Origin: a virus
Taxonomy: Duplodnaviria > Heunggongvirae > Uroviricota > Caudoviricetes
Virus record (IMG/VR): IMGVR_UViG_2531839374_000016
Length of the DNA stretch: 17,636 nucleotides
Strand: one strand, 5' to 3'
Shown: piece by piece, positions 2,959-3,295 of the stretch
Layout of the letters: each line of letters starts with the position of its first letter
Position numbering within the stretch: the stretch's first letter is position 1
Translations under genes and position numbers: made by a program
The notes under the pieces: model-generated
The model's input: only the letters and a program-made list of their open reading frames with translations
Database searches by the model: none
Told to the model about the DNA's origin: nothing

Positions 2959-3295
2959 CGCGGGAAATGCAGTTTGTCATGCGGCTTGCCCGGGAGTTCC
3001 GGCGGGCAGACTGGCGGCGGATGCTGTCGGAAATGTCGGCCACTGAGCTTGGTGAGGGGGCGATTATTTCCGGATGCAGAGCTTCAGTGATGTGTGGATG
3101 GATGCGCAGTTTGCCTCGCTGAAGGCATTGATCGTGAGAATGGTGTCCGGCAGCAGTGATGCTGCGGTGGCTGATTTCAGCCTTTTACCGGAAGAGAACG
3201 GGATACCGGAGCGAACGGACGAAGAACTGATGCATCTTGGGGAAGGTATTTCCGGAGGTGTGCGTTATGGACCAGATAGCCAACCTGGTCATTGA
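2949..3295 (+). CDS. T: T segment of the G-T tail assembly chaperone (made by -1 frameshift from G); reading frame breaks near the G5 run at 3056-3060
   Basis: The -1 frame (relative to G) is open 2946-3119 (KVLTREMQFVMRLAREFRRADWRRMLSEMSATELGEG...), then hits TGA at 3120-3122. The T-like sequence continues in another frame from 3056 to TGA 3293-3295 (GGDYFRMQSFSDVWMDAQ...EGISGGVRYGPD...). The two pieces overlap at a GAGGGGG tract. Confidence 0.6.

Follow-up and report, generated by a model that had tools for sequence, protein, structure and literature searches.

We conclude that gene T of a defective, ipaHd-carrying lambdoid prophage remnant in the Shigella lineage has very probably undergone a genuine, vertically inherited 1-nt deletion, in which the T of a TGG codon (Trp31) was lost. 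The stretch of 17,636 nt analyzed here, which we call the window, is 100% identical, in the same coordinates, to AMGB01000042.1 from the Shigella flexneri 1485-80 draft, and its J protein is EJZ66924.1 of that strain. A sequence-only reading had noted that the T frame, once entered by the -1 shift from G, stops at a TGA at 3120-3122 and that T-like sequence continues in another frame from 3056 to 3295. Translations, tblastn and Pfam all bear this out, and every coordinate in that reading, including GAGGGGG at 3054-3060, agrees with the sequence read directly. The features of the chaperone locus are listed here.

2572-2958, plus strand: G, tail assembly chaperone, intact, 128 aa, ending in TGA; PF06894, E=2.7e-40.
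2944-2955, plus strand: putative G-T -1 slip site, CCGGAAAAGTCC, read as CCG GAA AAG TCC, with the shift on A AAG.
2967-3122, plus strand: upstream T piece in the frame reached from G, with T residues 1-30 (2967-3056), 21 out-of-frame codons and the TGA at 3120-3122.
3054-3060, plus strand: lesion, GAGGGGG, left when one T dropped out between 3056 and 3057; ancestrally GAG TGG GGC.
3059-3295, plus strand: downstream T piece, residues 32-109, now out of frame (tblastn, Pfam).
3267-6308, plus strand: H, tape measure, intact, 1013 aa, full length at 99.5% identity; its start overlaps the end of T.

In phage lambda, G and G-T arise through a programmed -1 frameshift (Levin, Hendrix and Casjens 1993; Xu, Hendrix and Duda 2004, 2013, 2014, cited in PMC5009743). 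The slip mechanism is reviewed in PMC5009743, and that account is the basis for the slip site proposed here. The lambda tape measure protein is bound by gpG and by the G part of gpGT; the T part attaches to the major tail protein and initiates its polymerization. Both gpG and gpGT are needed in a set ratio; they are made at about 30:1 and are required for tail assembly (PMC5009743).

The window shares with lambda the gene order V-G-T-H, with G between V upstream and the tape measure gene H downstream, as well as PF06894 in G and PF06223 in T. The frames, read directly, place T at -1 relative to G, overlapping the 3' end of G beside the shift-prone A AAG site. G is 100% identical to WP_000478927.1 of enteroinvasive E. 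coli (EIEC) relatives. The slip site CCGGAAAAGTCC is invariant in an alignment with phages mEp460 and Tritos and the EIEC prophages, and the G-T region, shift site included, is 96-97% identical to phages mEp460, cdtI and Tritos. The lambda slip sequence is G GGA AAG, from which the G GAA AAG of the window differs. The main departure from lambda G-T is that the T segment is cut after residue 30, leaving a predicted fusion without the T domain that binds the major tail protein. With its T domain broken in this way, the locus is a disrupted member, a pseudogene, of the lambda-type G/G-T chaperone family.

Direct translation of the -1 frame from G gives ...EKVLTREMQFVMRLAREFRRADWRRMLSEMSATELGEGAIISGCRASVMCGWMRSLPR before the TGA; taken by parts, it reads ...EKVLTREMQFVMRLAREFRRADWRRMLSEMSATELGE and then GAIISGCRASVMCGWMRSLPR. 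The frame one base back runs from 3056 to a TGA at 3293-3295 as GGDYFRMQSFSDVWMDAQ...GVRYGPDSQPGH, and its translation over 3056-3295 is also given as GGDYFRMQSFSDVWMDAQFASLKALIVRM...GGVRYGPDSQPGH. With the T protein of an EIEC relative as query, tblastn aligned residues 1-30 with 2967-3056 and residues 32-109 with 3059-3292. The two blocks are 100% identical and W31 alone is missing, so homology, not chance, defines the break. PF06223 (Phage_tail_T) matches the downstream frame with E=1.2e-10 and the restored T with E=3.9e-15 over residues 24-99. Because the frame breaks past residue 30, inside that span, the -1 frame from G contains no contiguous T domain.

The 51-aa ORF of the upstream frame has no Pfam match, and an exact look-up of its protein came back empty, indicating that gene callers do not report it. 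The downstream piece is in GenBank as a 73-aa partial T starting from the ATG at 3074 (ABB66240.1, "phage tail assembly protein T, partial"). The pseudogene is thus already deposited under such "partial" names.

We aligned the window with five relatives: three EIEC prophages (99.6-99.8% identical over the 901-nt G-T region) and phages mEp460 and Tritos (about 96.5-97%). Between 2930 and 3300 the sole indel is a single column, the missing T, and from mEp460 and Tritos the window differs there in nothing else. The window has GAG-GGGGCGAT where all five relatives have GAGTGGGGCGAT; in wider context, the window allele is GAGGGGGC and its counterpart GAGTGGGGC. The switch falls at the lost T of Trp31, between 3056 and 3057. 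Since the relatives show that a T was lost and no G, the deletion itself made the G5 run, and no homopolymer changed length. We rejected a G-run length change on this ground; a possible G6 intermediate, GAGGGGGGC, is absent from IMG/VR.

The earlier proposal that one restored base would make T continuous was right about the outcome and wrong about the base, which it had placed in the G run. Putting a T back after 3056 yields a 109-aa protein that is 100% identical to WP_001161009.1. As in a frameshift pseudogene generally, the orthologues have an unbroken ORF, from which the window's T departs by a simple indel.

We then asked where else the deleted allele occurs. Twelve loci were checked: ten that encode the 73-aa downstream ORF and two from a look-up of the window's L protein, with the window's own contig (L018) as one of the latter two. 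Eleven of them carry GAGGGGGCGAT exactly, so that ten assemblies besides the window's own have the deletion. These include the chromosomes CP000036, CP026807, CP026811, CP026823 and CP026840, together with UYIT01, PSSQ01, PSST01 and AFGC01 (S. boydii 3594-74). Several are finished chromosomes, among them CP000036, which we take to be that of S. boydii Sb227. Three IMG/VR contigs with the deleted allele are the same remnant (99.6-99.8% identity). A protein look-up placed the 73-aa ORF on 478 contigs, an upper bound for the deletion allele, as the same product also results from other upstream disruptions or from a gene call at an internal start; L016, a different deletion remnant, is an example.

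Functional relatives look different at this site. With the 901-nt G-T region as query, 17 phage records, mEp460, cdtI and Tritos among them, matched at 96-97% identity. This region was also matched at about 2000 places across 1847 complete E. coli genomes, best of all in EIEC-type strains (99.6-99.8%). A 71-nt query centered on the lesion had no 100% match in 1833 complete E. coli genomes (about 2000 places), and the 30 E. coli matches listed all span 72 nt, the version with the T. The 17 phage records likewise contain no deleted allele and match as the 72-nt wild-type version; in ON470578 and CP025902 the match spans one base less, yet the site is wild-type. The wild-type 28-mer is present on at least 120 IMG/VR contigs. 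The deleted allele was not found in JGI metagenome contigs, nor in GTDB species representatives, where a zero covers only the representatives of other species because GTDB keeps a single genome for each species and counts Shigella as E. coli.

A second gene of the remnant helps to show how these copies are related.

6637-7335, plus strand: L, with a compensated frameshift pair, T6 to T5 at 6744-6748 and G4 to G5 at 6821-6825.

The L ORF is full length, with the 26 codons between its two indels (77 nt apart) scrambled; the true L sequence, FFCNEQNEKGEPVTWQGRQYQPYPIQG, sits in another frame. The deletion in gene T lies at the base of the series and is present in all Shigella-type loci examined. 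A subset, Sb227 and CP026811, combines it with the G4 to G5 change in L; there the G5 change stands alone and L is broken. The window, AFGC01 and the Logan assembly of SRR058486 have the T6 to T5 change in addition. Sb227 is the nearest relative of the window, with 4 mismatches in 6.7 kb.

This nesting of indel alleles looks like a signature of descent, not of sequencing noise. The deletion in T is thus common to independently sequenced relatives (the ten further assemblies) and nested with the L alleles, as expected of a heritable change. A frame-restoring second indel in a dead prophage is unlikely by chance (about 1%, by a rough estimate), and the T5 state of L, seen in two drafts and the Logan assembly only, may be a homopolymer miscall.

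The rest of the window bears on what the loss of T could mean for the element.

1-635, no strand assigned: end of an IS110-like (ISSso6-family) element by which the prophage is cut short; matches ISSso6-annotated places at 99.5-100% identity.
12851-14636, plus strand: tail-fibre region, with a 243-bp deletion near 14161-14164.
14816-16567, minus strand: ipaHd, type III secretion effector E3 ubiquitin ligase, intact, 583 aa; prophage cargo gene.
16884-17636, no strand assigned: IS1 copy, 99.7% identical to an IS1 in locus L007.

The contig begins inside the ISSso6 element. The head-tail joining gene FII is reduced to its C-terminal 67 aa (residues 57-123, at 590-787), everything upstream of this remnant is gone, and the window contains no head genes. 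Head, lysis and regulatory regions are all absent from the contig. At the other end, the IS1 stands where EIEC relatives have a dinI-like gene and the attachment-side flank. Those relatives have the homologous prophage beside yecD-aspS, and strain VL46 keeps the capsid genes.

Relative to the EIEC prophages, the 243-bp deletion removes the 3' end of stf, a gene for a tail-fibre N-terminal domain, and the first 49 codons of a DUF4376 gene. At its junction (14161-14164), the two alignment blocks overlap by 4 bp. Sister Shigella copies are damaged in other places as well: their U is shortened to 74 aa, and their major tail gene, beside an IS66, is called at 228 instead of 246 aa, the 18-aa difference being as called. 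Absent head genes, insertion sequences on both sides, the tail-fibre deletion and the scrambled L are signs of non-function independent of T.

V, G, H, M, K, I, J and lom are full length, as are the divergent Z and U ORFs, and the exact H protein occurs on 450 contigs under the name "MULTISPECIES [Shigella]". ipaHd, too, has its full length, with 99.3% identity to the EIEC copies; no other gene in the window is clearly non-phage cargo. Over 11.8 kb, 49 substitutions and 3 single-base indels separate the window from the nearest EIEC prophage, a distance that we judged compatible with neutral drift. Most tail genes are full length, so decay is recent and light; this counts against a neutral reading and is no proof of absent selection.

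If the usual -1 shift still takes place at the end of G, it would yield a 183-aa product, G-T*, made of the G domain, 30 T residues and 21 nonsense residues. Almost none of the Pfam T domain, which recruits the major tail protein, would be left in G-T*, and a functional G-T would not be expected. The loss of T would be selectively neutral, with phage genes drifting to pseudogenes as the cargo gene ipaHd stays intact; it would carry no cost because the element cannot make heads, its tail fibre is broken and its L is scrambled.

The sequence-only reading had warned that a true lesion would inactivate tail production. The consequence for the phage is moot, because the head genes were already lost by the IS-bounded truncation and other tail lesions are present. 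The break in T is one of several lesions in a defective prophage, not the one that kills a live phage.

Could the deletion instead be a sequencing or assembly error, with GAGTGGGGC and an intact T in the true genome? The window does stem from a draft assembly, AMGB01000042.1, and an unrelated E. coli draft departs from two complete genomes by this very base, a possible hint of a site-specific artifact. An error limited to the window's draft is rejected by the allele's presence in other assemblies: ten others share it, several of them finished chromosomes, and it is phylogenetically nested with other indels. None of the approximately 2000 E. coli places matches the deleted allele, making a systematic artifact very unlikely. 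The lost base lies outside any homopolymer. We therefore regard an error as highly improbable. It is scarcely conceivable that T in this lineage naturally ends near 3120 and that the downstream frame is unrelated to it. The existence of the stop codon is all that speaks for such a short T; the downstream frame matches PF06223 and reproduces T residues 32-109 at 100% identity. Homologues with T ending near 3120, which the sequence-only reading had named as evidence against a lesion, were not found among the relatives examined, and the 17 phage records are wild-type.

A different way to rescue T would be another -1 shift, leaky or programmed, at the newly formed G GGG; G-T would then be full length again, with W31G, and some T function would survive. 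The P-site tRNA-Gly could slip from GGG at 3057-3059 to GGG at 3056-3058, or RNA polymerase could slip. Re-pairing from GGG to GGG would be perfect, and the slip yields exactly ...LGEGGDYFRMQSF..., rejoining the T frame in a product that contains ...LGEGGDYF...; PMC5009743 describes indel-correcting ("savior") frameshifting. However, the site is no X XXY YYZ heptamer. G GGG GCG permits P-site re-pairing only, as the A-site codon GCG, read from the sequence, is unable to re-pair on GGC. The fold of 3054-3140 has z=+0.5 against shuffles, giving no unusual downstream structure. The yield would be the product of two low-efficiency shifts, a conserved Trp would be replaced, and the element is headless, so that no selection for G-T is expected. 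Nor do relatives support a recoding signal: the deleted allele is in none of the 17 phage records and at none of the roughly 2000 complete-genome places by exact match, against at least 120 wild-type IMG/VR contigs. A programmed site at G5 is rejected for want of conservation in functional relatives, of a heptamer and of structure, and survival of T function by a second shift has very little chance of being right. A related reading takes GAG-T-GGGG as a recurrent deletion hotspot whose G GGG run allows low-level -1 slippage and hence some full-length G-T (W31G). Its sole pointer is the E. coli draft contig CABVWS010000008.1 (L017, 3972-3994), which carries the identical single-T deletion in an otherwise unchanged, mEp460-like prophage that has capsid genes and looks complete on the head side. 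Compared with E. coli 21EVA (NZ_CP138427.1, L023), this T is the sole difference over 8.2 kb. There, the deletion may have recurred independently at a hotspot, may have been imported by recombination or may be an error of that draft. Recurrence by misinsertion and then realignment beside the G run is plausible; import would be undetectable because the flanks are identical. Were the hotspot and leaky slippage both real, the allele would be a leaky, potentially reversible switch on tail production and no dead end, a prospect to which we give only a slight chance.

An inherited deletion thus remains our reading of the T lesion: a fixed pseudogenizing change within a decaying prophage, and ordinary gene decay. 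Close relatives show the undamaged state. Phages mEp460, cdtI and Tritos and the EIEC prophages of VL46, CFSAN029787 and FDAARGOS_943 have tail-module DNA 90-99% identical to that of the window and the same T protein once the base is restored. Unlike the window, they have an uninterrupted 109-aa T, and most keep head genes.

The remnant also resembles the chromosomal ipaH-bearing cryptic prophage remnants of Shigella and EIEC (PMC8072062; Ashida et al. 2007, cited there). As in those, ipaHd adjoins lambdoid tail and tail-fibre genes, insertion sequences flank the element, and the cargo gene is intact beside decaying phage genes. We see no essential difference from them; the lesions particular to this copy are the -1 in T, the -1/+1 pair in L, the 243-bp tail-fibre deletion and the IS110-like truncation.

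Read as a true pseudogene and not an assembly error, T of the Shigella ipaHd remnant matters mainly for annotation. The order of changes, from the deletion in T to the added G and then the lost T in L, is nested across S. boydii and S. flexneri 1485-80-type strains and may serve as a clonal marker. The remnant illustrates the usual Shigella pattern in which virulence cargo, here ipaHd, is kept as phage functions decay, and it has no bearing on open questions of G-T frameshifting.

Some minor features of the alignments deserve mention. The Z/U junction (1212-1430) is a mosaic patch, 84-93% identical, with several small indels, to EIEC relatives that are otherwise 99% identical. Another mosaic patch in the tail fibre (13772-13782) has a -1/+4 indel cluster that is net +3 and in frame. 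In E. coli RMDEC465 (NZ_CM177019.1; L003, 3769-6810), the tape measure gene is annotated as a pseudogene with an internal stop. In the prophage of this EIEC relative, lysis genes replace the head region, making it another, independently decaying copy.
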